From Kiritimatiellia bacterium (GTDB lineage Bacteria; Verrucomicrobiota; Kiritimatiellia; RFP12; UBA1067): a stretch of 61,824 nucleotides of DNA. Each line of letters opens with the position of its first letter. The first letter of the stretch is position 1. Of the stretch, positions 7,466 to 56,429 are shown piece after piece. The notes below the pieces were generated by a model. It searched no databases, was not told the DNA's origin, and saw only the letters and a program-made list of their open reading frames with translations. The DNA lies in the NCBI GenBank assembly GCA_045628545.1, contig JAZQPI010000012.1:1-61824 (forward strand), read 5' to 3'. The position numbers were made by a program, and so were the translations under genes.

Positions 7466-8025
7466 TTGATCAGCGACAGGAACTCCTGTCTCACTTTCTC
7501 GTCCGTCCTAAAGGACCCCAGCACGGCCGACGTCGTCATTTCGGAATTCTGCTTCTCGACCCCCCGCATCATCATGCAGAGGTGCTTGGCGCGGATGACG
7601 ACGCCCACGCCTTCGGCCCCAGCCTCCGCCATGATGGCGTCGGCGATCTGCTCGGTCATCCGCTCCTGGATCTGGAGCCGCCGAGCGAACATGTCCACGA
7701 TGCGCGCGAGTTTGGAGACGCCGAGGACCTTGCCCTTCGAAATGTAGCCGATGGCGCACTTGCCGTAGAACGGCAGCAGATGGTGCTCGCACAGCGAATA
7801 CAGCTCGATGTCCTTGAGGATCACCATGTGATTCGTCCCCGACGTGAACTTCGCGCCGTTGACGACCGCCTTCAAACTCTGGCGGTAACCCCGCGTCAGA
7901 AACGCGAGGGACTTCGCGACGCGCTCCGGCGTCCGCGCCAGCCCCTCCCGCTTCGGATCTTCGCCGAGCTCGACGAGGAGCTTCCTCACGAGCCCGGCGA
8001 TCTTCTTCTCGTCCGGCTGCTTCAT
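7462..8025 (-). CDS. folE: GTP cyclohydrolase I
   Basis: [44 protein letters not shown]. Start corrected to the ATG at 8025. Confidence 0.96.
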
Positions 8026-8471
8026 CAGTCGAAGATGTCCGGATCGAAGTTCACGATGATGAACACCGGCAGGAAGCCCTTCCGGTTGAAGTTCAGGAAG
8101 CCGAGCTGGAACTTCGCGGCGTCGGCGACATTCAAGAGCCCGAGGTCGAGCGTCGGACCTTTCGCGACGTTGATCATGCCCAGCTGCACGCAGGGGTTGT
8201 TGCCGCGGTTGAACCAGAAGGACGCCTGGAGGGCGCAGTCGGAGCCGGAGTCGTTGATGCCGAAGACGGACCACTGCACGCCCTTGGAGACAGGCGAGCC
8301 GCCGTAGAGGAGCGAGAGTTCAAGCGCATCGACGCTGGCGCATTTCGTCGCCAGACCGAACGAGACGTCGGGACGGCTCATGCCGTTCTCCATCCACCAG
8401 CTCCACTCCACCTCCGCCTGCGCGAACGCGGCCGTAAAAACGAGCGACAACGCCACCAGCAACTTCTTCAT
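8025..8471 (-). CDS. Small exported protein with Q-x-G-x-x-N beta-repeats
   Basis: Signal peptide [19 protein letters not shown]; repeats VQLGMIN, LDLGLLN, FQLGFLN; C-terminal [11 protein letters not shown]. Confidence 0.7.
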
Positions 8472-8544: not shown

Positions 8545-8655
8545 CTAAACAGGGGCTAGGCTAATATGCCAGGGCGCGGCGACGTCGAACGGAGCGGACA
8601 TGACGCTCCCGACGAGGCCTGCGGCCGCAATGACGAAAAGGATCGTTCGTTTCAT
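8545..8655 (-). pseudogene. 36-codon ORF consisting of little more than a signal peptide (possible gene remnant)
   Basis: MKRTILFVIAAAGLVGSVMSA is a typical Sec signal, followed by only about 15 residues and a stop. Confidence 0.35.
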
Positions 8656-8665
8656 TTTCAGTTTC

Positions 8666-8700
8666 AAAAAAAAGCGACGAAGGCGTACGCCTTCGTCGCT
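8666..8700 (-). terminator. Rho-independent terminator of the surface protein/barrel operon
   Basis: Perfect 28-bp palindrome AGCGACGAAGGCGTACGCCTTCGTCGCT (8673-8700) with a T8 tract on the minus strand, 5 nt after the stop at 8706. Confidence 0.9.
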
Positions 8701-8705
8701 GGGGG

Positions 8706-9836
8706 TTAAAATTCGTAACCGATCATCAGGCGAATGCCCCAGTCGGAGCGGTCGATGCTGCCGCTGACATGGCGGCCGTCGACCTCGAGGTCGTCCCGCA
8801 GGAACCTGCCCATGAAGTCGATCATGATGTCGAAGCTCTTGTAGCGCAGGACCGTGCCGAGACCGACGACGCCGTAGCAGTCCCACTGCGAGAAATCCTC
8901 GTCGTACGCGCGACGCTCGCAGTAGAACGTGGAGTCAAACCGTCCCCAGCTCACGCCGACGCCGACTTCGGCGAAGACGCGCCACCAGTCCGTGATCTCG
9001 TACCACGGACGGAGCATGAACAGCATTTCGAGCTCCTGATAGTCGCCGTCGGCCTGGCAGCGGTAACCGGTCGTCACGTCGCGCGTCGGACCGCCGGCGT
9101 CGTACGGGCTGCCGATGCCGACGAAGCCGAGCGCGGGGCTCGCGAACGTGCGCACGGAGTTCCCGTAGCCGTACATGTTCTGCGCGTCGGAACGGTCCCT
9201 GCCGGTGTCGTAGTCGTACGTGGTGTCGGCGTCAACGACGTCCGTCTTGTACTTGCCGTCGCGGACGGTGTCCGTACGCGACGACACGCCGCGGGCGTTG
9301 TAGATGCCGCGGGCGAAGAAGTAGGAGAACGCCGCGGCGAAGTCAACGCCCCACCGGTGCTCCTCCTCCTCGTCGTGGATCCAGAGCTCGCGCGAGATTT
9401 CGGCGGACAGCCCGAACTGACAGCGGTCGTCGGACTCGTCCCACTGCCGACGTCCGAACGAACTGCCGACCACCTCCTGATAGGCGTTTTCCGGCACGAA
9501 GTGTCCGTTGCCATGATAGGTGTACCCCGGCAGTTTCCAGTTCTCGGTGTCGAAGCCGTTGTCGAGGCTGTCGCTGTCGATGAAGCCGCCGCCGTCATAC
9601 CGCCGCGCCAGCGCCCGGGCGAGCGCGTCGGCCTTGGTCGAGCCGACAGGGACGCTGTACCGGCGCGGAATCGGCATCCGGCGCATGCCGAGGTCGGACC
9701 GGACCTGCGCGTTGAACGCCCCGCCGAACCCGATGCGCCACTTGCCGAACGTCTCGCGCTCCTGCTCCGGCTCCACCGCGCCTGCCATCAGCGCGACCCC
9801 GGCGACCACCATTCCGATAAGATGTTTCGTGTTCAT
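8706..9836 (-). CDS. Outer-membrane beta-barrel protein, predicted 8 strands with two very long loops
   Basis: Signal peptide, amphipathic strands (WRIGFGGAFN, FGLSAEISREL, WGVDFAAAFSYF, LEMLFMLRPWY, WRVFAEVGVGV, YGVVGLGTVLRY, FDIMIDF, WGIRLMIGYEF) and a terminal Y-x-F beta-signal. Confidence 0.8.
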   Translation of the reverse strand: MNTKHLIGMVVAGVALMAGAVEPEQERETFGKWRIGFGGAFNAQVRSDLGMRRMPIPRRYSVPVGSTKADALARALARRYDGGGFIDSDSLDNGFDTENWKLPGYTYHGNGHFVPENAYQEVVGSSFGRRQWDESDDRCQFGLSAEISRELWIHDEEEEHRWGVDFAAAFSYFFARGIYNARGVSSRTDTVRDGKYKTDVVDADTTYDYDTGRDRSDAQNMYGYGNSVRTFASPALGFVGIGSPYDAGGPTRDVTTGYRCQADGDYQELEMLFMLRPWYEITDWWRVFAEVGVGVSWGRFDSTFYCERRAYDEDFSQWDCYGVVGLGTVLRYKSFDIMIDFMGRFLRDDLEVDGRHVSGSIDRSDWGIRLMIGYEF

Positions 9837-9856
9837 TGTGGGCCCCCTTCCTTACC

Positions 9857-12800
9857 TTACTTGATGATTTCCTCGACCGTCAGACGGACGGTGAAATACT
9901 GGATGCCCGCCGGGACCTCGAAGCGGAACGTTCCGTCAGCCTCCAGCTTCGGCCAGGCCACTTCCTCGAACGTGTCGGCGAGCGAGGCCGCGCCCAGCAT
10001 CGCGAGACGCGCGTTCGACCCGGGCAGACCGTCGGTTCCGTCGGCGCTCACCGTCACGACGCGCCCGCTGGCGACGCCGTCAGCGACCGCGAACGCCCGG
10101 AGGTCGAGCGACGGATCGCTGTCCAGCGTCGTCGGCGGCAGACCGTAGGCCATCACCTTGTTCGCCATCGCCAGCGTGAGCGGCTGCAGCGTCCCGGCCA
10201 GCGGATCGACCGGCAGCGGCTCCAGCCCTTCGGCGAGCGGGCACCAGTAGATCGTGTCGTCACCATCTTCCTGCCAGGTCAGGTAGCCGAGGGTCTTGTT
10301 GACCACGGTCGGGTCTCTCTCCACCAGCTTTTCGATGTCGTTCACCGCCAGCGCGATCTTGCGCTCCTCGTCCGTCGGCACGGCATAGCGGTCCTTCCAG
10401 AGCGGATCGGTGAACGTGGAGTCGGCGACGCCGTAGCGGCAGGGCACGAAGAGGCCGGACGCCTGCAGCGTCTTCTCGGTTTCGCTCAGACGGACGAGGC
10501 CGAACGTCTTGCCGCCGTAGACAACCGAGGAGGTCTGGGAAAGCCGGTCCTGGCTCTTCAGATTGCGCAGGTAGCAGTCCTCGCGGTCTTCGTAGATGTA
10601 GCAGAGGTTGCTGATCACGCAGGCGTCTCCGTTCGTGCAGACGACATCGAGTCCGCCGTAGAACACGCTGCCCGCGCGGTGATACTTCCACTGCATGCTG
10701 CCGGTCAGCAGCGGCGTCTCGCGGACGAGCGACTTGAAGACCGGCACCGTGGCGAGACGGCGGATATGGAGGACCACTCCGACTTCGGTCCGGCGCCAGG
10801 ACTCCACGCCCGGGATGATCTCCTCGGAATAGGGCAGCTCCGCCACCCCGTCGTTCTCGACATCGGCCGATTCGTTGGTGTGATTGCGCCAGACCGAGAA
10901 CTCGACCAGCTTCGGATTGAAGGCGTACGGAATCGTGATCGTCAGCATGTGGTCCTCGTCGATCTCGTTGCCGATGTCGCGCACCGTGACCTCCTTCAGC
11001 TCCTTCTTCTCGACGTCTTCGTAGTAGAAGTGCGTCTCGTAGATGGAGATGTCGAAGGCCTCGTACTGATACTTCGCGATATCCCGCTCCTTCTTGCCCT
11101 CCTTGCGCGCCTTGTCGACGACCGCCTTCTTGACCGCCTCAAAGGACTCCTGGACGTAGTTCTCGGAGATCAGCAGCCGCACCTCGACGTCTTCCGCCGG
11201 ACCCTTCTCGACCATGTCGACCAGGTCGTTGAGTTCCGGCGGACGGTCCGCGGCGTACTTGCCGGCGTCCTCGTTGTCCATGACGATGTCGACAATGCCC
11301 TTGCCGTCCTTCGTCGGCACCTCCTCGTGCGTCTCGGCGTGCGCGTTCGTCGGCGTGCTGAGGATCGCCAGTTCGCCGAATTCGTACGCGAAGACGTAGT
11401 TGGTGGCGAGACCCGGCGCGACTTCCGCGGCGAATTCGTTGTCGACCGGCCCGCAGGGCTCGGAGCTTTCGAGCACGACGAGCGGCGTCGTCACCGTGAA
11501 GGAGTCCTCAAGCCCCGTCGCGGCGTTCGTCACGAACGAGCCGTGCGCGACCCAGACGAGCTCGTTCGAGCAGACGACCTTCTCGCCGGGCTTCTCGGGA
11601 TCGAGGTACATCGTCTTCGTGCCGCTGCGGAGCGTGACCTCGCGCGGCAGGATCGTGAAGCGGTTCGTGAAGACCTCGTCGTAGTTGCCGATGCCGGTGA
11701 TCACGACATACGCCTCCTCCGTCGCATCGATGTTGTCGAAGTATTCGAGCGTGTAGTCGCGTCCCTCCACGAGCTCGGACGGATTCGCGGTCAGATTCGT
11801 GATCACGACTTCCGGCTCATAGGGCGTGCCGTCGTAGACGCGGCTCGGCAGCTCCGGGATGACGATGTCGGGATCGCCCGGCTTCGTCGGATCGTCCGGA
11901 TCGGGTCCGATGGACTTCGCCACGACCTTGAGCTCGCTCGGGACGTAGGTGACCTTGTAGTTGCCCTGCAGCTCGTCGCCCTCGGGGGTGATCGCGTACG
12001 GCGAGCCCGCCACGTCCTCGCCCTCATCGCGGCCGACCATGTAGACGAGCGCCGGGCCGCCGATGAAGCCTTCGCCCACCGTCGCCGTCAGCTCGGGGTC
12101 GGCCTCGCCGTAGGTCTTCGTCTGCGGATCCGCCGTCACCGTCACCGGACGCGGCAGGACCGTCACGTAGGCGTAATTGGAGACCGTCGTGAAGCCGGGC
12201 GCCTCGACCTTGTACCAGACCTCCGCGCCGTCGACGACGTCGACGAACGAGGGCGCAGGGCCGTAGGTCTTGCCGCCGTCGGTCGAGTAGGTCACCGTGT
12301 AGTCGTCCGTCGGCCAGGTCACGTCGACGACGATGTTCGTGCCCACGCCGTCGTAGACCTTGATGACGTTACGGACGCCAGTCTCGCTCTCGCCGTCGTC
12401 GTCCTTCGCCGGCGGTTCGGGCATGTGCTCGGGGTCGAACGGACCCTTCCCGCCGATCTTGATGCCGTCCTCGGTCACCTTCAGCGTGCCGTTGACGTAG
12501 ACGAACTCGTAGTTCTTCGCGACGCCGTCAGTCGCCTTCGCGATCGGCAGGTCGGCGGGGAGCGTCTTCGTCGTGTACCCGCTGCCGAAGGTCGGCTCCC
12601 GCTCCAGCACCGACGCGTCCTCGTCGTTCACGAAGCCCTCGTACTTGAAGGTGTAGAAGTCCGTCCCCGGGACCGCCGCGCCGTAGACGAGCGTCTGGTC
12701 GTAGGCCGTCACGGTGAGCGGGACCTTGGTGATCTCGAAGTAGTTGGTGAAGACGCCCGTGTAGTTGCCCTTGCCGGTCACGACGATGCCCGCCTTGTCC

Positions 12801-15487
12801 GTCGCGTCGACGTTGTCGAAGTACTCGATCTCGTAGTCCTCGCCCTCGACGAGCGTGCCGAGCGAGTTCGTGCAGACGACCTCAGGCTCCCACTCCGTGC
12901 CCTTGTACGGCACCTTGTCCTTGCCCTCGCCGCCGAAGTCGAGGCCCGTGTCGGACGCGGGATCGCCGGGCTTCGCCGGATCGTCCACGTGCCGCGGCTT
13001 GATCACGAGATTCGCGGAATTAGTGGTCGCGTAATAGCCCTCGGCCGTCGCCTTGACATAGACCTTCAGCGGCTCGTCCGTCACGTCGGTACGGCCCTCG
13101 AACGTCCACGGACCCGTCTCGTCCGTAGCGAACTCGAGCGTGACGTCCTTCACCGGCTCGCCGTCCTCGTCGGTGACGGACACGACCAGGACGTTCGTGG
13201 AGATGCCGTCATAGACCTTCGTCACGTCGATCACCTTGATGTGCATCTCCTTGATCGGATCCTCCATCCCCCAGTCGAGCATCGTCGCCCGCGCGGCCGC
13301 GGCGGCCTTGACCGACTCCTTGCCATCCTTCGCGAACAGCGTGACTTCCGCCGGACCCTTGTTCGGGTCGAGGTGCCAGACCTTGTTCGCCTCGTCCCAG
13401 ACGGCCATCGGCGGCTCTTCCGGATGCTCCTTGTCGTGCTGCTGGCACGCCTTCAGGAACGTGCCGTCATCGACGATCTCGATCTCGAACTTGTTCCACG
13501 TCTCCTGCGTGAGGTTAGAAATGTTCGCGACGACCGTATAGTCATTCTCGATCTTGAAGGACGACGCCGGTTCCGCCGCCCAGTGCGCCTGGTCATTCGG
13601 CAGGTCGGCAATGAAGGCGGTGTTGTAGACGTTGGTGAGGGACTCCGGCGCCGCGGCGTTCTTCCACGTGAAGAAGCTGATCTTCTTCTTTCCGCCCTCG
13701 GAAACGATGCTCAACGATTTGTTGATGTCCTGGATCGTGTCGACCAGCTGCGCCGAATACGTCGTCGTCTTGACGTACTTTTCAAGAATGTTCGTCACGT
13801 TCTCGACCTTGTCGTAGAACGCCTGCAGCTCGTTCTTCGTGCCTACGTAGTAAGCCCCCGACGAATTGGACAGCGTCTCCGACATCGCCCGTCCCTCCAG
13901 ATAACGGTGCGGATCGAGCAGCGCGGTCAGCAGCTCCCAGGCGCCGTCTTCCAGCTTATAGTCCTTGCTCGCGGAGATGTAGAAAGTCGACGGACGGTAA
14001 TACTGCGACGGCTTCTGGCAGTAGGACGGATCGTTCTTGTTGTTCGTGTCGGACGCGGGGTCGATGATCCAGATCACGCGGTCGTTGTCGTAGTACCACG
14101 CCAGCTTCTCGGCCACGCGGTTCGCCAGCGCGCGGTTCGCCGCCGTGGCGGTCAGCCCGTGGGCCACTCGGTTGCAGTCGAACTCGAGAATGACATACGC
14201 GTATTTGCGGCGCAGTTCGCGCACCGTCGCCTCGTCCAGGCTCTTGTCAAGCTGCGTCAGGTACGCCAGCAGGTTCTTGTGGCCGCCGCTGACGAAATCC
14301 GGAATCGTCGGCATCGTCTTCTGGTTCATGGCGATCGAGCCGTAGTGCTTCGCGTCCTTGACCGCGGACTGCGAAGCGTCCGTGTAATCGAACAGATACC
14401 AGTCGACGTTACCCTTCTTCGACAGGACCAAAAACGCATCGCTGATCGTGTCCTGCACCAGCGTATGGTTGCCGCAGAGCGACCCGATGAAGAGGATGTT
14501 GTTCGTCGGCACGTCCGTCACGCCCGTCAGAACGTGCGAAGTCACGCGGATCGTCGCGTTCGACTTGTTGAACATGTCGGCGACGAGCGCCGCGTTCACG
14601 GTCTTCTCGATTTCGACCGTCATACAGCGCACGCCGCAGATGTAGCTCTTCAGCGCCGTCTCGACCGTAATCTCGGCCGAACCGTCACGCACCTCGTTCG
14701 TCACCGCGGCAAAACCGCCCGCGTTCACGATCTTCGCGATGCGCTCGTCCGTCGTGAAAACGCCAGTCACGTCCTCCCAGGCAATCGCCTGTCCCAGCTC
14801 GTTCGTCAGCAGCGCGCCCTCGCCGTGCGCGAACTTGATGACGCCCAGATCGACCTCGTCCTTCGCGACGGTCACCGTGATGCGCTGGCGGAGGGGGTTG
14901 CCATCGCCATAGGTCTCGCTGCCCGAACGCACGTCAATCGTCGTCGTCCCGGCACCGACCGGAGTAATCGTCACCGTGCTGGACTTCGCCGACGACGAAA
15001 CGACCGTCGCCGTCGCCACTTTCTCGTCCGCGACCTTGCAGGCCCATGCCGCCGCCGTCGTAATCGTCGGCGTCGCCACCATCGCGTTCGCGCCGCCGAG
15101 CTTCAACGACAGCTCGTCGGCCTGCGCAACATAGACGGTATAGGTGTCAAGCGTGGACACTCCGGAGGTAAACTTGCTGTTCGACGCCTGCTGAAGGGTT
15201 ATCGTCGCCTTGTCCGGCGTAAACGCGACGCCGGTAAACGTCGCCGACACCTTCGCGGCCTTTTTCCCGTTCTGAGTTGCCGAGGTGCCCGTTGAGGACA
15301 CGTAGCTGGACGCCCCCGCGCCGAGCACGTACTTATAGTAGTAGTTCGCCGTGACCGAAGCCGTACTGGCGACGGATTTCGCCTCGGCCTCTACCAGCTC
15401 GACGACGGACTCCGCCGCACGCGCCGCAAACGTCCATCCCAGCAGACCTGCCAGGAAAGCATTCGTCACTAATTTTTTAATTTTCAT
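9857..15487 (-). CDS. Giant secreted/surface protein (1876 aa) with Ig-like and MBG-type repeats and a possible degenerate vWA-like domain
   Basis: Signal peptide ending ARA. MBG-like starts LTVTAYDQTLVYG and VTVTADPQTKTYGEADP. Duplicated LVEG.DY..EYFDN.DAT...VTG.GNY and KVYDG..TN modules. Acidic and T/V-rich. Confidence 0.85.
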   Translation of the reverse strand: MKIKKLVTNAFLAGLLGWTFAARAAESVVELVEAEAKSVASTASVTANYYYKYVLGAGASSYVSSTGTSATQNGKKAAKVSATFTGVAFTPDKATITLQQASNSKFTSGVSTLDTYTVYVAQADELSLKLGGANAMVATPTITTAAAWACKVADEKVATATVVSSSAKSSTVTITPVGAGTTTIDVRSGSETYGDGNPLRQRITVTVAKDEVDLGVIKFAHGEGALLTNELGQAIAWEDVTGVFTTDERIAKIVNAGGFAAVTNEVRDGSAEITVETALKSYICGVRCMTVEIEKTVNAALVADMFNKSNATIRVTSHVLTGVTDVPTNNILFIGSLCGNHTLVQDTISDAFLVLSKKGNVDWYLFDYTDASQSAVKDAKHYGSIAMNQKTMPTIPDFVSGGHKNLLAYLTQLDKSLDEATVRELRRKYAYVILEFDCNRVAHGLTATAANRALANRVAEKLAWYYDNDRVIWIIDPASDTNNKNDPSYCQKPSQYYRPSTFYISASKDYKLEDGAWELLTALLDPHRYLEGRAMSETLSNSSGAYYVGTKNELQAFYDKVENVTNILEKYVKTTTYSAQLVDTIQDINKSLSIVSEGGKKKISFFTWKNAAAPESLTNVYNTAFIADLPNDQAHWAAEPASSFKIENDYTVVANISNLTQETWNKFEIEIVDDGTFLKACQQHDKEHPEEPPMAVWDEANKVWHLDPNKGPAEVTLFAKDGKESVKAAAAARATMLDWGMEDPIKEMHIKVIDVTKVYDGISTNVLVVSVTDEDGEPVKDVTLEFATDETGPWTFEGRTDVTDEPLKVYVKATAEGYYATTNSANLVIKPRHVDDPAKPGDPASDTGLDFGGEGKDKVPYKGTEWEPEVVCTNSLGTLVEGEDYEIEYFDNVDATDKAGIVVTGKGNYTGVFTNYFEITKVPLTVTAYDQTLVYGAAVPGTDFYTFKYEGFVNDEDASVLEREPTFGSGYTTKTLPADLPIAKATDGVAKNYEFVYVNGTLKVTEDGIKIGGKGPFDPEHMPEPPAKDDDGESETGVRNVIKVYDGVGTNIVVDVTWPTDDYTVTYSTDGGKTYGPAPSFVDVVDGAEVWYKVEAPGFTTVSNYAYVTVLPRPVTVTADPQTKTYGEADPELTATVGEGFIGGPALVYMVGRDEGEDVAGSPYAITPEGDELQGNYKVTYVPSELKVVAKSIGPDPDDPTKPGDPDIVIPELPSRVYDGTPYEPEVVITNLTANPSELVEGRDYTLEYFDNIDATEEAYVVITGIGNYDEVFTNRFTILPREVTLRSGTKTMYLDPEKPGEKVVCSNELVWVAHGSFVTNAATGLEDSFTVTTPLVVLESSEPCGPVDNEFAAEVAPGLATNYVFAYEFGELAILSTPTNAHAETHEEVPTKDGKGIVDIVMDNEDAGKYAADRPPELNDLVDMVEKGPAEDVEVRLLISENYVQESFEAVKKAVVDKARKEGKKERDIAKYQYEAFDISIYETHFYYEDVEKKELKEVTVRDIGNEIDEDHMLTITIPYAFNPKLVEFSVWRNHTNESADVENDGVAELPYSEEIIPGVESWRRTEVGVVLHIRRLATVPVFKSLVRETPLLTGSMQWKYHRAGSVFYGGLDVVCTNGDACVISNLCYIYEDREDCYLRNLKSQDRLSQTSSVVYGGKTFGLVRLSETEKTLQASGLFVPCRYGVADSTFTDPLWKDRYAVPTDEERKIALAVNDIEKLVERDPTVVNKTLGYLTWQEDGDDTIYWCPLAEGLEPLPVDPLAGTLQPLTLAMANKVMAYGLPPTTLDSDPSLDLRAFAVADGVASGRVVTVSADGTDGLPGSNARLAMLGAASLADTFEEVAWPKLEADGTFRFEVPAGIQYFTVRLTVEEIIK

Positions 15488-15631
15488 AATCTACCCCCTG
15501 TTTGATTAACCGCAATCTACGTAGCAAGAACCGTGCCAACGACGTTTTATGTCGTCAAAAACAGTTTTCGCACACCTTTGGTGTCCGTCTTTCGGTCACT
15601 CTGTCCAAATCGCGGACACAAATGGACACTT

Positions 15632-15661
15632 ATTGTATCGCATTGTTATACAAAATGTCAA
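15632..15661 (-). promoter_or_regulatory. Sigma70-type promoter of the surface protein operon
   Basis: TTGACA (15661-15656), 18-bp spacer, TACAAT (15637-15632). Confidence 0.7.
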
Positions 15662-15695
15662 GTGAAGCAATCCAAACAATCAAACAATCTTTCGT

Positions 15696-15741
15696 GCTCT
15701 CGTGCGCCAGTCGGCGAGACGCCGACGGTACGGACGAGAGC
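15696..15741 (-). terminator. Long hairpin downstream of miaB (putative terminator)
   Basis: Outer stem GCTCTCGT/ACGAGAGC and inner stem GTCGGCG/CGCCGAC. No clear U-tract on the minus strand. Confidence 0.45.
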
Positions 15742-17291: not shown

Positions 17292-19022
17292 TCAGCGTTT
17301 GCTGGAACTGACGCGGTAGCGGTAGGTCGAATTCTTCGGCGACGAGCCGTGGCGGATGTAGATGAGGAAGACCTTGCCGCGGTACTCGACATCATCCTTC
17401 TTGTCGTACTCGGCGATGAAGTCGGAAAAGTGCCCGGCGCGGTCTTCGATCACGGCGACGACGTTCGACGCGGCGGACGCTTCGACTTCGTAGCGGAAAG
17501 CCCCGTTGGTGGCGATCAGCCGTCCGCCCGAAAAAGTCCTGATCGAGGCGTTGGGCTGCGCCAGCGCATGCTCGACGCACGTCACCACCTCGCCCGAAGC
17601 GGCGTCGGCCGAAAGGACCGTCCCCGAACAGGTCACCCCCCGTTCGTCAAACGACCAGCGCTTGTCGGCCGTCAGCCCCTCGCGCTCGATCCGGAAGTCC
17701 ACCGTCGCCCGCTTGTCGCCCTTCTTGCCAGACACCCGGATGCTGTCGGCCTTGTTGCCGAACTGGTCCTCCCACGAACCGACGTACGGCGGCTTCTTGA
17801 GGTAGGTCGTCACTCCGGGAATCAGCCGCCAGTTCGACCAGAGCGGAAAGATGTCCGCATACTCCGATCCCGTCGCATAGACGGTCAGCATGCCGTCCGC
17901 CATGTGTCCGCCCCGCAGGTTGTCGCCGTTGATCCACGTCTCCGTGCCGACGATCTTCGAGGTTGACATCTTCAGCTCCGCCATCCAGCCCGCCGCCCGA
18001 TAGACGCCGTAGGCACAGCTGTCGTAATACTTAAGGCCCGTCGGCTTGTCCGTGCGCAGCCGTCCCCCAGCCCTGGCTAGCACCTCCTTCGACCGGTTGA
18101 TGCCGAAGGCGTTATTTCGACTGTATTGCGGCCGCAGATGGCGGTCCATCGCCCCGACCGGCATCCATCCGTTCCAGAGCACCCACCGGTAGCCTTCGTT
18201 CCAGAGCAGCTCCAACGCGGACATCTGGTCCGCCGTCAGCGCCAGGGACGTGCCGGCGAAAACGTTGGCGACATTCGCCGACTGGGTGAAGAAGGCGAGA
18301 CCGTAGTTGCCGAACTGCTGCTGGATGCCGTGCTGGAGGAACGCTCCGTCCGCCCGCAGGCCCTCCGCGTCGGACACGCGGATCGGCTCAACCATGGCCG
18401 CCGCACCCTCCCGCACTGTCGCCGCGTCGGACGCGAGCAGCCCCCGCATGAAGACGCCCAGCCCCAGCCAGGAGCGGTTCTGTCCGGTCCGCCCGACCTT
18501 GGCGCGCGACATCACGCGAATGACGCCCGAACGCTCGTCAGCCGTCAGCTCCGGCTCGAAAAGCAAGGCCACGTAGCCAAGATTCATCGGCGTCGAAATC
18601 TCGTTCCACCACCAGTTGTCGCTGGTGAAATCGCCCTGCAGCCAGAATGTCAGTCCGCGGTGAAGCGACTCCGCCAGCCGTTTCTTATCCGCGCCCTTCG
18701 ACTTCCGCCAGGCGACCGCCAGGGGCATGAGCTTGTCAGTGAGATGCTTGTGCGGCGACCAGACGTCGGACCGCCGCCGGTCGGCGTAGTTGATCTCCGG
18801 CCACGATCCGTCCGGACGTTGCGCGGCGAGGATCGCCTTCACCCGCTCCGCCGTCGCGCCATGTCCACCGGACACCAGTTCGGCGACCAGGTTCCGCCTC
18901 AGAGCCGTCCAGTCGGACGACGGCAGTCCCCCTGACTCCGGACCCTTGGCGGCGCGCGCCGACACGACTCCACCGACCAGTCCGACCAGCAAGGCCGCCT
19001 TCAGCCAACAATGTCTGTCCAT
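17292..19022 (-). CDS. Polysaccharide lyase family 8 (chondroitin AC/hyaluronate lyase-like), exported
   Basis: DGSWPEINY, NWWWNEI..P, TGQNR.W, EGLRADG.FLQHG....GNYG (catalytic His/Tyr), EY.DIFP, W..IPGVT; signal peptide. Confidence 0.85.
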   Translation of the reverse strand: MDRHCWLKAALLVGLVGGVVSARAAKGPESGGLPSSDWTALRRNLVAELVSGGHGATAERVKAILAAQRPDGSWPEINYADRRRSDVWSPHKHLTDKLMPLAVAWRKSKGADKKRLAESLHRGLTFWLQGDFTSDNWWWNEISTPMNLGYVALLFEPELTADERSGVIRVMSRAKVGRTGQNRSWLGLGVFMRGLLASDAATVREGAAAMVEPIRVSDAEGLRADGAFLQHGIQQQFGNYGLAFFTQSANVANVFAGTSLALTADQMSALELLWNEGYRWVLWNGWMPVGAMDRHLRPQYSRNNAFGINRSKEVLARAGGRLRTDKPTGLKYYDSCAYGVYRAAGWMAELKMSTSKIVGTETWINGDNLRGGHMADGMLTVYATGSEYADIFPLWSNWRLIPGVTTYLKKPPYVGSWEDQFGNKADSIRVSGKKGDKRATVDFRIEREGLTADKRWSFDERGVTCSGTVLSADAASGEVVTCVEHALAQPNASIRTFSGGRLIATNGAFRYEVEASAASNVVAVIEDRAGHFSDFIAEYDKKDDVEYRGKVFLIYIRHGSSPKNSTYRYRVSSSKR

Positions 19023-20175: not shown

Positions 20176-23100
20176 TTACCAGTAGACGTACATGTACGGG
20201 TCGAACTTGCGGTAAAGCATGTTGTAGAGGTCCTCGACCGGCGCGCCGGCAGCCTGCGCCGCCTTGGGTTCCGCGCCGGACTCCTTCGCCGCCAGTTCGC
20301 GGACGATAGCTGGATCGTCCGACACCTGCAGATAGAAGGCGTTGCGCTGAAGCGGCTCGGGGCAGCCGTGCTTGACGCCGATCCGATTGACGCCCTGAGT
20401 CATCCGAACCGGAACCTTGACTCCGTCTTTGCCGACCGACGCGGCGCGGAAAACCTCTTTGCCGTTCAACCAGACGACAAGCGAACCGCTTTTCGCCTTG
20501 ACGGACAGTGCTCCGTCGCCGCCGCCGTACGACTCGAAGTCGCTGACGTAGTAGTTGACCTCCGGCCGTCCGCGGCCGTCATCGGTCGTCACGGAATTCG
20601 CCGCGCCGAAACGATTCTCGCCGTCCGTGGTGAAGCGGAAGCAGAGCGTATCGACCTTGCCGTCGGGGTTAGGCGTAATCGACGGACGCCAATTGACCGG
20701 CTCCCCGCCCTGCGGCAGCGTGAAGACCGGATTGGGGTTGAACGTCGCGTCGACCGCCATCTCCTCGGCCTGGTCGGACGGCTTCCAGTCCAGCGCCGCC
20801 TCGGCCGTCATTCCCTCGCGGGCGAACGGCCCGAGGATATGCCACGGATTCGGATTGCGGAAGCCAGGCTGGGCGCGGCTAAAGGTCAGCAGCCGTTTCG
20901 TCAGGGCCTCGCCCGTGCGGACTCCGAGGTTGCAGAGGATACGCGAAATCATCTCGCGGGAGTGCTCCTCCGAAAGCGACACCGTGTTGCGTTCGCAGCT
21001 CGACTTCCAGTCCTTCGGATCCGCGCGAACCTTCTCCGCGTAGCGATCGGTGAGCAGATACGGGTCGAGCTGGATGAAGAGCACCTCGTCCTGACCGTCG
21101 TTGGCGCGACGCGGCACGGCGAAAAGCCCGTCGCACAGAACGTCCCACTTCACGTCCTTCGCCGGCGGCGCGAACCGGCGCGTCTCCATCGCGTCACGCC
21201 AGCGCAGGTGCTTGCGGGAAAGGCCGGTGAAGGTCCGGTGGCGACCGAACTCGCGGCCGAGATCCCGCTGCTCGGGATAGCTGTGCCAGAACTTCTCGGC
21301 GGGACGGAGCGTCAGCCCCGCAGCTTCAGCGAGCGCGTCTTCGTTCAGGATGACGAACCGGCACGCGCGGTTTTCGCGCAGCGCCGAAACGCGCTCCCAC
21401 TTCAGGTTCTTCGAGCGTCCGACCAGCACGACCGAGTTTGTCTCCACCGCCGCGTCGTCGGCCGGCAGCGGGTCGAAGTCGGCACGGATGTCCTTAAGCA
21501 CCCGCTCGGCGAGTTCGCCGTCCGCGTAAACGCGGCGGTTGTGCGCGGGCACGCCACGGTTGAGGACGCCGTCCAGCATCACCCTGGCGACATCCCGCGC
21601 CCCCGGATCGGTCCGCAGACGGCCGGCGAAGTCGAGCGCGCAGAAAGTGAGCGCCCCCGCGCCGTGGAAATAGCGGATGAGGCCAGCGTAGTTCATGTCG
21701 AACTCGCCGACGACAAGCGGCTCGAAGCCGAGCGTTTCGGGAATGCGGAGCGGCAGCGAGCAGATCGAGTGACGGTGCGTGCCGCGCGGTCCTCGCGTCC
21801 CCTTGGCGGTCATCACGTGCCCGAAGTCGGCGCCGTAGCCCTGTGGCGAACCGCGCCAGTGGTCGAACGAAGCGGAGTTCGCGCCGCCGAACGCCGCGGT
21901 CGGCCAGAGCTTGCGCGACTGGGCGTCTTCGCAGGCGAAGCCGATCGCCTGCCAGACTTCCGCGCGCTGCGGCATCACGACGACGCGCAGGCCCTTGGCG
22001 ATCCGCTCGGCGTTCAGAAGCCCCCACACCTGAGGATCGAGCATGTTCTGGCCGACGAACAGCGCCGCGCGCGCGGGCAGATTGGTGAAGGCCGCCGCCG
22101 TCAGCGGCTTGAAGCCGACGCCCATTTCGCGCAGGAACGCCGCCGCCGTGTTGTTAGAGACGGAACCATCTGGCGACCACACGAAGACCGGCAGCCGCTG
22201 GTTCTGGTCGACGCGGCGTTTGGTGAGCCAGTGTTCAGGATAGATCTCGAACTGGAACTTGTCGGACGCGAGGAACTCGTGCGTGTCGGGATCGGTCACG
22301 TACAGGCAGAGATTGCCCGACCACGGGTTGCCGCCGGTTTCGGGCGGGAGCTGCGACACCGTGAACGAAATCGGCACCTTGACGATGTCGCCCGTCTTGA
22401 GCGTCTGCGAGAACCGTCCGGCCACCCCCTCGAGATTCCGCTGCCAATTGGGGTCGCCGCCGAACTGGGCCTTCCACTCGACGTGCACCGTGCGCTCGCC
22501 GAAGCCGTCCCAGATCAGCACGGCGTCCTTGCGGATCTCCTCGCCGACGTAATAGGCGTGGGTGCGGTCCGCGTGTTCGCCGTCGCCGCCGCCGATGAAC
22601 CCGAGGAAGTCGTGGTTGCCGCGCTGGAAGATGTCGTAGGACGGATTCGCCCACTCGGGGCGCCCGTCCGGCACCGGGATGCTGCGGTAGTCCATCAGCG
22701 GAACATGGCGCCCGGTGGGATTGCCGAACGCCTCGCCGACGTTGAAGTTCATCAATCCGCCGTTCATTCCGTAGGCGCGGAACGAGCGGAGCGTCCGCCA
22801 GTTCAGGAGGTCGACGAACTTCGTGAAGAGCGGATAGTCCCACAGCTTCATTTCGGGGACTTCCGCGCCGTGCCACGAGGTGTTGGCCTGCCCCATCTTA
22901 AGCGTGTACTGCATGCACTTCTCGGGTTCGGTGCGGTACGCCTCCTCGCCATAGTAGACGGACATCCACTCGGTGAAGATGAAGTTCACGTACATGTGCC
23001 AGTAGCTGCCGCGGTAAGGCTGGCCCCATTCGGCGGCGTACCACGGCAGGATGCCGTTCTTCGACCACTGCGCCAGCCACTCCTCGCGCTCCTGCAACGG

Positions 23101-24582
23101 CGTGAAGTTGAGGTAGAGGTTGTTCGAGGAGATCTCGCCCGTCGACCCGTCGGCGTGGGAGAAGTAGAACGCGTTCGGATGGACCGCGCGACAGGCCGCG
23201 CAAGCGGCGTCAATGCGCTGGGCGCTCTGCGTGGTGTCCTTGAACTGCCCCAGCCGCTCGGGACGCATGTTGACCGCCGGACAGTAGGTGTTGACACCGA
23301 CGTTGAAGGCGATAATCGCGGGCGAATTGCGGTACTTGCGCATCACGTAATTGGCGTAGCGGGCGTACTGCTTGAGCGCCTCCTGGTCACGCGAAAAGCC
23401 GAACCCCATGTCGTTGATGTTCGGACCGCCCAGAAAGAGCGCCATGCCCTGACGCGCGGCCGTGTCGAGGAACGGCTGGGCGTGTTCCGGCACCGACTGG
23501 AACGAATGCGTGCCGTAGAGGAGGTTGAAGCCGAGCCGCTTCAAAAGGACTATGCCGCCGAGACACTGATCCTCCGTACTGGCCAGCTGAAGATAGCAGC
23601 CGTAGTTGCCGCGGAAATGCTGGACATGGCCGTTCATCCAGATTTCGCGGCCTTTGCGGACGAGTTCGCGGAAGCCCCAGACGAACTCCGGATAGACGTC
23701 AGCACCGTCGTCCAGCGACACGCGCACCCGGTAAACGGCGGGACGCGACGTCTCCCAGAACTTCACGTCCGGCCAGTCAAACGTCTGCTCGAAGGCGGAC
23801 ACCCCCTTCTTGGCCCGAACCTCGGCGGAAAAGGTCTTGACGACCTTGTCGTCATCGTCCAAAAACTCCGCCTTCAGCTTGACCGGGCGGTCGGCGAGCG
23901 AACGGATCTCGGTGGCGATAGTGACTGACCGCTTCTCCGCGCACGGCTTGAGATAGACGTCCTCAAGCGAAGCCGCCGCGCGAATCTCTATCCGCCCGCG
24001 CGGACAGCTTCGGCCGGAGTACTTCATCTTCTCATCATAGGGATTGGACTGATAGCCCCAGTAGCGCGTCTCCTTTTCGCTCACGCCGACGTTCTCTCGC
24101 GTCGCGAACATCTCCAGACGGTTCGTCGCGCCGAAGGTGACCGCGTCGGTCAGGTCCAGAGCCCCGCCCGGACGCAGAATCTCGCCAACGACCTTGCCGT
24201 TCATGCGCACCAGCACGTCGTATTCGGGATTCTCGTGCGAAAAGACGATGACCCGGCCGCGATCCTCGGCCTTGACGGGGACATCGGCTTTGAACCAGGT
24301 GCTCAGGGCCTTGCCGGCCTGTTCGCTGGTAAAGAAGGGCTGACGCTGAACGTGCTTGCCCTTCTCCCAGGTCCAGAATGGCGAATAGGAGAACCAGCCG
24401 CCGTTGGAATTGCCGATCGGCCACCACTTGCCGTCGTCCGGCTCGGGCACCTTCGTCGACGCGCGGCCCTCGGTAAAGGCCGGCTGACTCGACCACCTCA
24501 GCCCAATCCGTGAACGCGGTCCGTCCGCCAGAATCGACAATCCCGCGGCCGCAACCGCCAGCAACAGCAACAGTTTCTTCAT
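20176..24582 (-). CDS. Large exported glycoside hydrolase, GH2-like (1468 aa)
   Basis: Signal peptide MKKLLLLLAVAAAGLSILA; VRMNGK.VG, FWET.RP.VY, WGFREL......MNG....FRG, YRNSPAII, putative nucleophile in AAEWG; C-terminal DPYMYVYW. Confidence 0.8.
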   Translation of the reverse strand: MKKLLLLLAVAAAGLSILADGPRSRIGLRWSSQPAFTEGRASTKVPEPDDGKWWPIGNSNGGWFSYSPFWTWEKGKHVQRQPFFTSEQAGKALSTWFKADVPVKAEDRGRVIVFSHENPEYDVLVRMNGKVVGEILRPGGALDLTDAVTFGATNRLEMFATRENVGVSEKETRYWGYQSNPYDEKMKYSGRSCPRGRIEIRAAASLEDVYLKPCAEKRSVTIATEIRSLADRPVKLKAEFLDDDDKVVKTFSAEVRAKKGVSAFEQTFDWPDVKFWETSRPAVYRVRVSLDDGADVYPEFVWGFRELVRKGREIWMNGHVQHFRGNYGCYLQLASTEDQCLGGIVLLKRLGFNLLYGTHSFQSVPEHAQPFLDTAARQGMALFLGGPNINDMGFGFSRDQEALKQYARYANYVMRKYRNSPAIIAFNVGVNTYCPAVNMRPERLGQFKDTTQSAQRIDAACAACRAVHPNAFYFSHADGSTGEISSNNLYLNFTPLQEREEWLAQWSKNGILPWYAAEWGQPYRGSYWHMYVNFIFTEWMSVYYGEEAYRTEPEKCMQYTLKMGQANTSWHGAEVPEMKLWDYPLFTKFVDLLNWRTLRSFRAYGMNGGLMNFNVGEAFGNPTGRHVPLMDYRSIPVPDGRPEWANPSYDIFQRGNHDFLGFIGGGDGEHADRTHAYYVGEEIRKDAVLIWDGFGERTVHVEWKAQFGGDPNWQRNLEGVAGRFSQTLKTGDIVKVPISFTVSQLPPETGGNPWSGNLCLYVTDPDTHEFLASDKFQFEIYPEHWLTKRRVDQNQRLPVFVWSPDGSVSNNTAAAFLREMGVGFKPLTAAAFTNLPARAALFVGQNMLDPQVWGLLNAERIAKGLRVVVMPQRAEVWQAIGFACEDAQSRKLWPTAAFGGANSASFDHWRGSPQGYGADFGHVMTAKGTRGPRGTHRHSICSLPLRIPETLGFEPLVVGEFDMNYAGLIRYFHGAGALTFCALDFAGRLRTDPGARDVARVMLDGVLNRGVPAHNRRVYADGELAERVLKDIRADFDPLPADDAAVETNSVVLVGRSKNLKWERVSALRENRACRFVILNEDALAEAAGLTLRPAEKFWHSYPEQRDLGREFGRHRTFTGLSRKHLRWRDAMETRRFAPPAKDVKWDVLCDGLFAVPRRANDGQDEVLFIQLDPYLLTDRYAEKVRADPKDWKSSCERNTVSLSEEHSREMISRILCNLGVRTGEALTKRLLTFSRAQPGFRNPNPWHILGPFAREGMTAEAALDWKPSDQAEEMAVDATFNPNPVFTLPQGGEPVNWRPSITPNPDGKVDTLCFRFTTDGENRFGAANSVTTDDGRGRPEVNYYVSDFESYGGGDGALSVKAKSGSLVVWLNGKEVFRAASVGKDGVKVPVRMTQGVNRIGVKHGCPEPLQRNAFYLQVSDDPAIVRELAAKESGAEPKAAQAAGAPVEDLYNMLYRKFDPYMYVYW

Positions 24583-24633
24583 GTCATGAGTCCTTTTTCT
24601 ATGCCACGCACCAGAGAACACTATTATCTTACG

Positions 24634-24642
24634 ATTATACCA
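24634..24642 (-). promoter_or_regulatory. Extended -10 promoter element (TGGTATAAT) for the GH2-HGSNAT-PL8 operon
   Basis: Exact TGNTATAAT about 50 nt upstream of the ATG at 24582. Confidence 0.65.
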
Positions 24643-24665
24643 AAATACAGAATTAGTTTCAAACC

Positions 24666-25637
24666 TCAGTAGCCAATGTCGGCAGCAGCGGCCGCAAGGC
24701 CGCCGCCGAAACCGGCCAGCAGCACCCGTCCCGCCCCCGGACCGTGCGCCGCCAGCGTGACCGGGACGGACGCCGACGCCGGATTGCCGCAGGTGTCGGC
24801 GCTGATCCACAGCCGTTCCGCCGCGAATCCCAGCGCCTGCGCCAGCCTGGACACCATGTAGACGTTCGCCTGATGCGGCACGAACGCCGCGAAGTCGTCG
24901 GCGGTCCGGCCTGTCTCCTGGAGAAACGCCTGCAGGAAGGTCTGGACGTCCGCAGCCACGAAGCGGAACACCGCGAAGCCGTCCATCGCGATCGTTCCGC
25001 CGGGCGAAAGCGTCAGCGCGTCCCCTCCCGCGCCCGCCGTCATAAAGGCGAAGCGCCACGGTTCGGCGGACTTGTCGTCCGTCGGCGCGACGAGCGTCGC
25101 CGTGCCGGCGTCGGAGAGGACCGGCACTGTCGCCGCGTCGTCGGGAGCCGTCACCGCGCTCTGCACGTCGCCGTCCAGAAGCAGCACGCGGCGGCCGAGC
25201 GACCGCGCCAGCGTCCCCGCCAGGTAAAGTCCGTACGGATACCCCGCGCAGGCCTGCGTCAGCTCGAACGCGGCAAGGTCGGTCGGCAGTCCGAGCCGCC
25301 GCTGCGCCTGGCTGGCGTTCCCCGGCATCAGCCGTTCGGGCGTCAGCGAGACGGACACGACCGCGCCGATGTCCGCGCGAACCGCCTCCGGGGTCTGTCC
25401 GGAAACCGCGGCGGTTTCGGTGAACAGCGTCTCGGCCGCGCGGCAGCAGAGGTCGAGGGAAGTCGTCCCGGGCTCGGCCAGGCGGCGGCTCCGGACGCCG
25501 GTCGTCTCGACGACCGCGCGGGCCCGCTCCGCGTCGCCGAAGAGCCGCAGGCAGTCCGTCAGGCTGTCCGCCGCGCGTTCGGGCAGGCACGCCCGCACGC
25601 CTTCGATTTTCACGCCTCCGACTTCGAGTATCTGCAT
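24666..25637 (-). CDS. 3-oxoacyl-ACP synthase III (FabH-like)
   Basis: Cys-His-Asn triad contexts QACAGY, PHQAN, GNPASAS; C-terminal AGFGGGL. Confidence 0.82.
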   Translation of the reverse strand: MQILEVGGVKIEGVRACLPERAADSLTDCLRLFGDAERARAVVETTGVRSRRLAEPGTTSLDLCCRAAETLFTETAAVSGQTPEAVRADIGAVVSVSLTPERLMPGNASQAQRRLGLPTDLAAFELTQACAGYPYGLYLAGTLARSLGRRVLLLDGDVQSAVTAPDDAATVPVLSDAGTATLVAPTDDKSAEPWRFAFMTAGAGGDALTLSPGGTIAMDGFAVFRFVAADVQTFLQAFLQETGRTADDFAAFVPHQANVYMVSRLAQALGFAAERLWISADTCGNPASASVPVTLAAHGPGAGRVLLAGFGGGLAAAAADIGY

Positions 25638-25652: not shown

Positions 25653-26588
25653 TCAGGCGTCCGCTCGCGGATGGGCCTTCGCGTACTGGTCACGGAGGCG
25701 TTCGATGGAGACGTGCGTGTAGATCTGCGTCGTCGAAAGCGACGAATGGCCGAGCATCTCCTGCACGCTGCGGAGATCCGCCCCCGCGTCCAGGAGATGC
25801 GTCGCGAAGCTGTGGCGGAGCTTGTGCGGCGAGAGGTCCGTCGGCAGTTCCGCCTCGGCGAGATAGCGCTTCATGCGCCGCTGGACGAACCGCGCGGAGA
25901 GGGGGCCAAAGCCGTCGCCCAAGAAAATCCGTTCGCCATCAAACGCAGTCGCTGGACGCACACCCGCCAGATAGTCGCGAAGCGTCCGCAGCGCCGCCAG
26001 GGCCTTCGAGCCGAGGATGACGAGACGGTCCTTGCGTCCCTTGCCGGTCACGATGATCGTCCCGTCCGCCCAGTTGATCTCGCGCCAGGTCACGGCGAGC
26101 ATCTCGCTGATGCGACAGCCGGTCGAGTAAAGCGATTCGAAGAATGCGGTGTCGCGCAGGCACGCGTATTCGCTGACCGACCCCTCTTCGAAGTCGAGCA
26201 GCGGACGCTCAAGAAAGCGGTCGACCTCTTCTGCCGAGAGCACCTTCGGCAGCCGCCGGGCCTGGCGCGGACCGCGGATCTGGGCGAAGGGGTTGTCCAA
26301 AGCCAGGTTTTCGCGCTGGAGGAAGCGGTAAAAGGCGCGTAGCGACGAGAGCTTGCGCGCGATCGTCCGCGCATCGTCCCCAGCCGTCGTCCGCGCGACG
26401 ACGAACCGCCGCGCCGAGAGGTCGTCCAGCTTCGTCCAGTCGGGAGCCTTGCCCTCTTCGCCTCCGACGAGCCAGGCGCCCAGCTGGGCGATGTCGGAAA
26501 GGTATGAAGACACGGTATGGGCGGAGGCGTCGCGCTCCGCCGTCAGGTAGGTGATGAAGCGGCTGACCAGCGGATCAGCCAACGGCAT
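25653..26588 (-). CDS. xerC: Tyrosine recombinase XerC/XerD
   Basis: ARKLSSLRAFY, LPKVL, TGCRISE, GKGRK, HKLRHSFATH, LGHSSLSTTQIYTH; follows topA. Start taken as the ATG at 26588. Confidence 0.9.
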   Translation of the reverse strand: MPLADPLVSRFITYLTAERDASAHTVSSYLSDIAQLGAWLVGGEEGKAPDWTKLDDLSARRFVVARTTAGDDARTIARKLSSLRAFYRFLQRENLALDNPFAQIRGPRQARRLPKVLSAEEVDRFLERPLLDFEEGSVSEYACLRDTAFFESLYSTGCRISEMLAVTWREINWADGTIIVTGKGRKDRLVILGSKALAALRTLRDYLAGVRPATAFDGERIFLGDGFGPLSARFVQRRMKRYLAEAELPTDLSPHKLRHSFATHLLDAGADLRSVQEMLGHSSLSTTQIYTHVSIERLRDQYAKAHPRADA

Positions 26589-37897: not shown

Positions 37898-38242
37898 TCA
37901 CGGATAAATCGCCGAAACTGACGCCACGCCGGGCACGGCGCCGGTCTTCGTCACCGTGACGCGCACGGCCGTCGGCCGACAGCCCCCCGCCGCTTCAAGG
38001 CACGCTTCGTGCGCGAGCTTCGCCGCCCGCTCGACCATCCGGCAGCGCGCCGCGACCAGCCGGGCGCGGACGCGCTCCGCCAGCGCCGCGTAATCGACCG
38101 TGTCAGCGAGATCGTCCGTGTCGGCGACGCGGTCCGGCAGCTCCAGCTCGACATCGACCAACAGCCGCTGCAGCCGGTCGCGTTCGTCGGGCAGATCCCC
38201 GATGACGCAGTCGACCGCAATGCCGTTGACCTCCAGCCGCAT
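37898..38242 (-). CDS. folB: Dihydroneopterin aldolase
   Basis: IG....ER...Q...VD, DDLADTVDY, MVE..A, V.V.K. Confidence 0.85.
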   Translation of the reverse strand: MRLEVNGIAVDCVIGDLPDERDRLQRLLVDVELELPDRVADTDDLADTVDYAALAERVRARLVAARCRMVERAAKLAHEACLEAAGGCRPTAVRVTVTKTGAVPGVASVSAIYP

Positions 38243-47974: not shown

Positions 47975-47978
47975 GACC

Positions 47979-52337
<4,359 letters not shown>

Positions 52338-52385
52338 AGCTCAAAGTTCCTTTCCAAGATTTCGTTTCCTCGCGTTCGGACTCCC

Positions 52386-56309
<3,924 letters not shown>

Positions 56310-56429
56310 TGTTAGCTTACCCCTTTAGTGAATGAAAAAACGAAAAACGACAATAAAACACCACAATAGCACCTGAAGTGTGGGAAGCAACCACTTTGTT
56401 AACTGTGCGCTATTTGCAATATTCTTATC

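Follow-up and report, generated by a model that had tools for sequence, protein, structure and literature searches.

The subject of this study is a two-gene unit on the minus strand of a 61,824-nucleotide (nt) contig from a Kiritimatiellia bacterium (GenBank assembly GCA_045628545.1, contig JAZQPI010000012.1), the whole of which we call the window. The unit is compact, comprising a promoter-like site, an open reading frame (ORF) for a giant protein of 1876 amino acids (aa), here called the cargo, an ORF for a 376-aa beta-barrel, and a terminator. Judged from gene order and co-occurrence across genomes, both of which are strong, the two genes form a dedicated functional pair. A comparison of how large ORFs located before barrel homologues end showed that the cargo carries a conserved C-terminal module, in which a beta-sandwich (D1) is followed by a short helix and a second beta-sandwich (the C-terminal domain, CTD). 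This module is the key feature absent from an earlier note that had been made on this DNA from its letters. We give about an even chance to the reading that the barrel is the cognate outer-membrane dock or anchor of its giant cargo, where the physical binding is a step that we infer.

The pairing is evident within the window's own genome (1.7 Mb, 79% complete). This genome contains four barrel copies, and exactly three of its ORFs match a hidden Markov model (HMM) of the CTD, each ending 15–22 nt before a barrel start codon. The fourth barrel copy (contig C58:209-1219, minus strand) is 5'-shortened, spanning profile positions 77-374 and lacking the signal peptide and first strand; it is preceded by an unrelated 230-aa ORF, with no module protein upstream, and is probably the decayed remnant of another cargo–barrel pair.

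The same arrangement recurs in other genomes. All genome-search counts are lower bounds, as only the top candidates of a loose first pass were scored in each genome. After two duplicates were merged and five partial matches set aside, 25 full-length or near-full-length barrel loci were available from other genomes, and at 21 of these a protein with both D1 and CTD ends directly upstream of the barrel. Two further loci (G367 and G496) have a large upstream protein that carries D1 and the helix (domain E-values of 4e-61 and 3e-56) followed by a different final ~200 aa, and at one (G586) the upstream protein shows a partial CTD match and no detectable D1. The last locus (G544) is inverted: the barrel comes first, a 435-aa ORF next, and a 2542-aa module protein, encoded on the same strand, last. 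A module-bearing gene therefore lies directly upstream of the barrel at 24/25 full-length loci, and the module is present in some form at 25/25. The idea that the two genes form a dedicated pair had been put forward in the earlier note, along with the suggestion that barrel homologues scattered in random contexts would undermine it; the homologues are not in random contexts, and the pairing stands.

Co-occurrence tells the same story. Among 221 genomes of the window's taxonomic family, the barrel was found in 27, the module in 28, both in 23, and neither in 189. The four barrel-only genomes hold only partial barrel matches. The five module-only genomes comprise three weak matches, one match that runs off a contig end, and one genome (G527) whose protein stands apart: at locus L054 (G527:C19, 5240-13135, minus strand) a 2631-aa protein matches the CTD (E 1.5e-24), has no D1 and has no adjoining barrel, so the CTD can exist without a barrel. 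Pairwise identities of the barrel also track those of the module, with Mantel correlations of 0.84 for D1 and 0.69 for the CTD, values that 0 of 2000 permutations reached. In 23 pairs, cysteines that might link barrel and module to each other showed no consistent, conserved pattern.

The pair has a narrow taxonomic range. Within the family (27/221 genomes), the barrel occurs in 15/116 other genomes of the window's genus; wider samples gave 5/401 genomes class-wide, one of them outside the family, and 4/401 genomes phylum-wide, with none outside the class. The pair is thus almost wholly confined to one Kiritimatiellia family, and it is an accessory module rather than a general trait of the Planctomycetes–Verrucomicrobia–Chlamydiae (PVC) bacteria; the label 'PVC-type', under which it was originally described, is not supported.

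The conserved module of ~285 aa closes a cargo that is otherwise built of adhesin-like parts. The features of the cargo gene are:

9857..15487, minus strand: cargo gene P0001, 1876 aa, an adhesin-like giant with predicted Sec export (ORF and Pfam).
15416..15487, minus strand: cargo signal peptide, ~aa 1-24, ending ARA/AE (assigned by eye from a basic n-region, hydrophobic core and AxA site).
11930..12145, minus strand: best MBG_2 (PF18676) repeat, aa 1115-1186 (Pfam).
10148..10714, minus strand, helix included: D1, the penultimate beta-sandwich, ~aa 1592-1770 (alignment and model).
Within 10148..10714, minus strand: short helix after D1, ~aa 1772-1781, consensus LNASLAxG with a nearly invariant A-x-G (alignment).
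9860..10135, minus strand: CTD beta-sandwich of ~90 aa, aa ~1785-1876, ending in FxVRLxVxExxK, an FFKVR-like strand (HMM, i-E 1e-26).

The cargo belongs to the MBG-repeat proteins, matching MBG_2 in two stretches (E 3.3e-22; 79.3 bits, where the gathering score is 25), with an additional weak Pfam match to Big_1. Searches of the whole cargo against sequences in the PDB returned nothing at E <=0.01, and an ESM Atlas search with residues 290-730 gave no usable match. An AlphaFold2 model of the last 300 aa, built from 23 sequences, has a mean predicted local distance difference test (pLDDT) of 80.7, with the CTD above 90, and shows two beta-sandwiches. A fold search with the module recovered only generic immunoglobulin (Ig)-like sandwiches (Z up to 8.1), so that the fold supplies no functional name. 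When a word-index search with residues 1540-1876 was limited to proteins of 1031-3283 aa, the query alone was returned; most cargo relatives are probably on short contigs. The full-length cargo proteins span 982 aa to >2658 aa and are mostly free of Pfam domains. At two loci, L015 (G095:C39, 6443-8641, minus strand) and L045 (G480:C29, 1006-4623, plus strand), large proteins with FFK[VL]-type ends are encoded just upstream of the cargo genes. Neither matches the CTD HMM, and the genomes of these loci may hold several kinds of C-terminal beta-sandwich tail.

The partner of this module is a barrel that is small in its membrane part and large outside it. Its features are:

8706..9836, minus strand: barrel gene P0002, a predicted 376-aa outer-membrane eight-strand beta-barrel with two large extracellular insertions (ORF and AlphaFold2 model).
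9774..9836, minus strand: barrel signal peptide, ~aa 1-21, ending AGA/VE (assigned by eye; a low-confidence helix at 3-18 in the model).
9423..9698, minus strand: extracellular insertion L1, ~aa 47-138, with the motifs YDGGG (RYDGGGFID) and TENWKLP (alignment and model).
9048..9308, minus strand: extracellular insertion L2, ~aa 177-263 (alignment and model).

The protein combines a signal peptide with an aromatic beta-signal, ending in GYEF, and F376 is invariant in 28 sequences. An AlphaFold2 model from these 28 sequences has a mean pLDDT of 89.6, with 280/376 residues at 90 or more. We compared the model with known structures by VIA-align in an all-against-representatives search. The top matches, among them the OprF N-domain (4rlc; Z 17.2, root-mean-square deviation (rmsd) 2.2, 132/135 residues aligned), PagL (2erv; Z 17.1), the OmpA transmembrane domain (3nb3; Z 16.8, rmsd 1.7, 133/137 residues) and OmpW (2f1t; Z 16.4), are all eight-strand outer-membrane barrels and mark the model as a closed barrel of eight strands. 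Foldseek with the same model gave generic barrel matches at low TM-scores, including FadL rows at 0.14-0.18. The family profile weakly matches OmpX chains among the PDB sequences (E 9e-4), and the generic family OMP_b-brl (PF13505) is matched by 8/28 family members (best E 2.2e-5). The window's own barrel is unmatched by that family at E <=1 and has no family match in Pfam (E <=1) or NCBIfam. Going by its modelled fold, the barrel belongs with the OmpX/OmpA-like small barrels.

Relatives of the barrel make up a small family without a name. A word-index search returned 42 clusters at 90% identity, and an exhaustive search of 1.84 billion proteins yielded 76 representatives at 50% identity, none of which bears a name that tells its function. 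All 76 are <=418 aa, and hence no fused cargo–barrel forms were seen. One relative is labelled Candidatus Colisoma, a Kiritimatiellia genus in the NCBI taxonomy, and the ESM Atlas neighbours are hypothetical proteins of Kiritimatiellota or Verrucomicrobiota. A scan of metagenome contigs with the barrel alignment gave 169 pattern matches, none of which was confirmed.

Much of the barrel lies beyond its transmembrane core. The mature protein is 355 aa, of which ~130-190 residues align to small barrels and the remainder falls in L1 and L2. These two insertions contribute ~180 ordered residues; in the model, strands 2-4 are drawn out to great length and topped by a cap, and most of this part has pLDDT >90. 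The eight amphipathic strands and the two loops of 80-90 aa originally proposed agree with our strand assignment, the AlphaFold2 model and the eight-strand structural matches, with the refinement that the loops are modelled as mostly ordered and not floppy. Conservation in a set of 60 family members is higher in the transmembrane strands (mean top-residue frequency 0.50-0.60), and L1, L2 and L3 are variable in sequence (0.32-0.36) yet constant in length (2-10% gaps), with L1 at 0.35 and 7% gaps and L2 at 0.32 and 10% gaps. Variable sequence at constant length is as expected of partner-specific recognition surfaces. Periplasmic turn T1 is poorly conserved in this wider family (0.21, 49% gaps); close homologues keep a short N-terminal segment, ERETFGKW, and an acidic turn, HDE..EHRWG. 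Because many invariant charged residues sit within the strands of the 28-sequence alignment, the alignment suggests that the barrel lumen is filled, as in OmpA.

We propose a mechanism in which the barrel holds its cargo at the cell surface. The cargo, built like a fibrillar adhesin with MBG/Ig-like repeats, would be exported by Sec through its signal peptide and would present the conserved D1–helix–CTD end as a handle. The barrel would insert into the outer membrane, where strands 2-4 together with L1 and L2 would form a structured extracellular tower of ~180 residues. This tower would bind the handle of its own cargo, thereby tethering and possibly targeting the giant protein to the cell surface; a given barrel paralogue would act on the cargo of the neighbouring gene. 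An eight-strand barrel is too narrow for a folded or even an extended giant protein, in line with the previous judgement, now backed by structural matches to eight-strand folds, that this barrel is too small to be a classical translocon. If its lumen is indeed charged and filled, the barrel cannot serve as the conduit, and the cargo would cross the outer membrane by other machinery; the genome encodes four secretin-family genes, and secretins could supply the channel. The cognate-dock reading follows from the strict linkage of one cargo to one barrel, the conserved handle on an otherwise variable cargo, and the ordered yet variable extracellular part of the barrel. Within it, cargo surface location, physical binding, the cargo domain that is bound and the export route are the parts that we infer. 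A more ambitious version, which we regard as improbable, is that the pair is a self-contained display system independent of type IX secretion (the T9SS): the tower would capture the D1–helix–CTD handle, for example by edge-strand pairing, and the two genes together with the beta-barrel assembly machinery (BAM) or a secretin would suffice for proteins of 1000 to >2600 residues. If true, anchoring by a cognate barrel and handle would form a new class in PVC bacteria, one that has converged on the pairs of type B CTD and PorP.

Several observations weigh against the dock. The Mantel correlation is expected from the co-inheritance of adjacent genes alone, and the exceptions point both ways as to which cargo domain is linked to the barrel: G367 and G496 have D1 without the CTD, G586 has a CTD-like end without D1, and G527 has the CTD without a barrel. 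Variable surface loops can also arise under phage or immune pressure. Cargo surface exposure and the export route are assumed. Co-folding barrel residues 22-376, the mature protein, with the C-terminal 300 aa of the cargo gave a score of 0.00, a result that counts neither way on binding.

Other roles for the barrel must be weighed against anchoring. The same pairing evidence would fit a cargo-specific export or shuttle factor that pulls the cargo from a general translocon, or takes it over from one, with the cargo perhaps then released; the secretin-family genes could provide its channel, and in Flavobacterium the cognate PorP/SprF proteins are required for secretion beyond anchoring (PMC12618676). 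No lateral-gate translocon like SprA/Sov was detected in the genome in a search that lacked a positive control, no shuttle precedent is known for an eight-strand barrel, and no partner machinery is conserved adjoining the pair, so we hold this role to be possible but rather unlikely. Somewhat less likely still is an independent surface protein, an adhesin or receptor like OmpX, Ail or Opa, that is co-expressed with the cargo for attachment and never binds it. Its appeal lies in the fold, which resembles OmpX, NspA and the long-loop eight-strand barrels of Opa type, in the OmpX profile match, and in variable loops that would suit a ligand- or host-facing role. Yet co-regulation leaves unexplained why one specific module accompanies the barrel in 23/27 barrel-positive genomes and at 25/25 loci, and mere co-regulation likewise fails to explain why, in the window's genome, the one barrel copy without a partner is a shortened remnant.

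Two further readings we consider very improbable. In one, the two genes would form a type V system (autotransporter or two-partner) that has been split or has degenerated, and the barrel, aided by BAM, would translocate the upstream protein. A passenger gene followed by a barrel gene mimics the way in which the domains of an autotransporter are ordered, and no other dedicated secretion genes lie nearby. The barrel, however, has eight strands rather than 12 or 16 and a signal peptide of its own, no POTRA, Autotransporter or ShlB profile matches it at E <=1, fused forms are missing among the 76 representatives, and the invariant charged strand residues suggest a filled lumen. In the other, the giant protein would stay in the periplasm, where the N-terminal segment and periplasmic turns of the barrel would fix it to the outer membrane's inner face, a notion to which the conserved ERETFGKW segment and HDE..EHRWG turn of close homologues lend some plausibility. 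By the standard topology of outer-membrane proteins, though, it is on the extracellular side that the barrel is largest and most elaborate; giants with MBG/Ig repeats are typical of surface adhesins, and turn T1 is poorly conserved in the wider family. The cognate dock remains the reading that we prefer.

The expression signals of the unit are consistent with a closed transcription unit as first described, in that the promoter, the 1876-aa signal-peptide protein, the barrel gene 20 nt downstream and the strong terminator are all present on the minus strand:

15632..15661, minus strand: sigma-70-like promoter TTGACA-18-TACAAT, 11/12 consensus matches.
15488..15631, minus strand: 5' leader of ~144 nt with a GGGGG ribosome-binding-like run ahead of the ATG (from the sequence).
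9837..9856, minus strand: 20-nt intergenic spacer after the TAA stop of the cargo gene, with a purine-rich ribosome-binding-like run, GGAAGGGGG.
8663..8700, minus strand: intrinsic terminator with a hairpin at 8700-8673, of 12-bp stem (8 GC pairs) and 4-nt loop, and a T run (from the sequence).

TTGACA/TACAAT-like sites number 2 in the region against 0.9 expected in shuffles, and the predicted fold of the 5' leader is no better than that of shuffles (z -1.27). The neighbours of the pair are a MiaB-like radical-SAM (S-adenosylmethionine) gene upstream and GTP cyclohydrolase I downstream. As these flanking genes are housekeeping genes unrelated to secretion, the two-gene module is self-contained, and no other secretion genes were found in its flanks within the window.

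Other elements surround the unit. Just upstream of the operon promoter, an exact 21-nt sequence at window positions 15695-15715 occurs in 17 copies across the 1.7-Mb assembly, the other 16 places being on contigs C4, C18, C29, C31, C34, C37, C45, C50, C58, C79 and C95; two copies lie upstream of the shortened barrel copy on C58, and the sequence looks like a dispersed intergenic repeat. Directly after the terminator, a 36-codon ORF with a signal-peptide-like start (8545-8655, minus strand) adjoins a TATAAT-containing stretch, beyond which lies a 148-aa signal-peptide protein without a Pfam match (8025-8471, minus strand). Just upstream of the pair is a polysaccharide lyase family 8 gene (17292-19022, minus strand), and beyond it another giant ORF (1804 aa), which matches a GH2 domain weakly (20176-25590, minus strand); the lyase and the GH2-like giant fit a glycan-degrading gut lifestyle. 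A tyrosine recombinase with Phage_integrase and a SAM-like N-domain is encoded at 25653-26732 (minus strand). Long plus-strand ORFs between window positions 38000 and 61000, such as 47817-56315 (2832 aa), have a third-position GC of ~0.62-0.69, and most of the listed minus-strand ORFs in the window have 0.77-0.93; these plus-strand ORFs may be shadow frames of minus-strand genes.

How giant adhesins are retained on the surface of diderms outside the well-studied phyla is largely unknown, and the only established pairs of a cognate barrel and a C-terminal domain are those of the type IX system in Bacteroidota. The window pair suggests that giant proteins can be held at the cell surface in a manner not described before. 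A much smaller barrel of different fold, matched to an unrelated tail in Kiritimatiellia of the animal gut, points to convergent evolution of the design. The pair also offers a functional lead for an unannotated protein family of 76 representatives at 50% identity, and as a two-gene system it is small enough for direct testing and possibly for use in surface display. Literature searches on the Kiritimatiellota outer membrane and secretion and on eight-stranded barrels as adhesin anchors, judged by title and abstract, turned up no relevant description of this barrel–cargo pair.

Among systems whose working is known, the nearest is the pairing of a T9SS cargo that has a type B CTD and a PorP/SprF-like barrel, as in SprB–SprF of Flavobacterium johnsoniae and PG1035–PorP of Porphyromonas gingivalis. 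There, the gene directly downstream of the cargo gene encodes the PorP/SprF-like barrel that binds and anchors the type B cargo, SprF and PorP bind SprB and PG1035 respectively, and the cognate partners are needed for secretion (PMC9143113; PMC12618676). The window pair likewise has a large cargo with predicted Sec export and a C-terminal domain that is conserved, a small barrel gene directly downstream, and one barrel per cargo. The two differ in fold and in host. PorP-like proteins are predicted 14-strand barrels of the FadL family (bioRxiv 10.1101/2020.05.13.094771), unlike the eight-strand barrel of the window, and the T9SS is described as exclusive to Bacteroidota (PMC12618676), unlike this Kiritimatiellia-type PVC bacterium. 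PF11751, the PorP/SprF family, matched neither the window protein nor any of 28 family members at E <=1, and the best structural matches, being eight-strand barrels, speak against a FadL-like 14-strand barrel. No type A or type B T9SS CTD from Pfam or NCBIfam matched P0001 at E <=1, and none from Pfam matched the 23 module sequences. In the 79%-complete genome, searches with SprA_N and PorP_SprF turned up nothing, and both families were silent in the control genomes too.

The pair shares with type V systems a large passenger-like protein encoded before an outer-membrane barrel, with no accessory genes nearby. A classical autotransporter (type Va) is rejected by the separate barrel ORF with its own signal peptide, the eight strands, the missing Autotransporter profile match and relatives of <=418 aa, and TpsB (type Vb) by the missing POTRA and ShlB matches and by a size and fold incompatible with a 16-strand Omp85-type barrel. 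The earlier exclusion of an autotransporter, a TpsB protein and a type I secretion system (T1SS) component is upheld by profile, and neither PorP/SprF nor PorT gave a profile match.

In fold, the barrel sits with the N-domain of OmpA/OprF, OmpX/Ail, NspA and Opa, sharing their core (Z 14.7-17.2), a C-terminal aromatic residue and a weak OmpX profile match. It is not OmpA proper, as nothing follows the last barrel strand and the protein shows no match to the OmpA_C peptidoglycan-binding domain. Unlike these small barrels of ~150-170 aa, it is about twice the size in its mature form, the difference residing in the ordered residues of L1 and L2, and it has an obligate linkage to a neighbouring giant-protein gene. 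OmpX has a protruding beta-sheet for which protein binding by edge-strand pairing has been proposed, and the two long variable loops of Opa proteins bind protein receptors; both are precedents for protein binding by small barrels. Giant adhesins are also held by outer-membrane proteins elsewhere: LapA is held in the TolC-like channel LapE, and CglB is held by Glt barrel proteins in Myxococcus. Like these, the window pair would have a giant adhesin held non-covalently by a dedicated outer-membrane protein. The LapA and CglB systems rely on components of a T1SS or on gliding complexes of many proteins, and on N-terminal retention modules, whereas the window pair has a single small barrel and a C-terminal module. 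Taken together, the design of a cognate outer-membrane barrel with a C-terminal handle is already known, and the parts that compose it here are unrelated in fold and tail.

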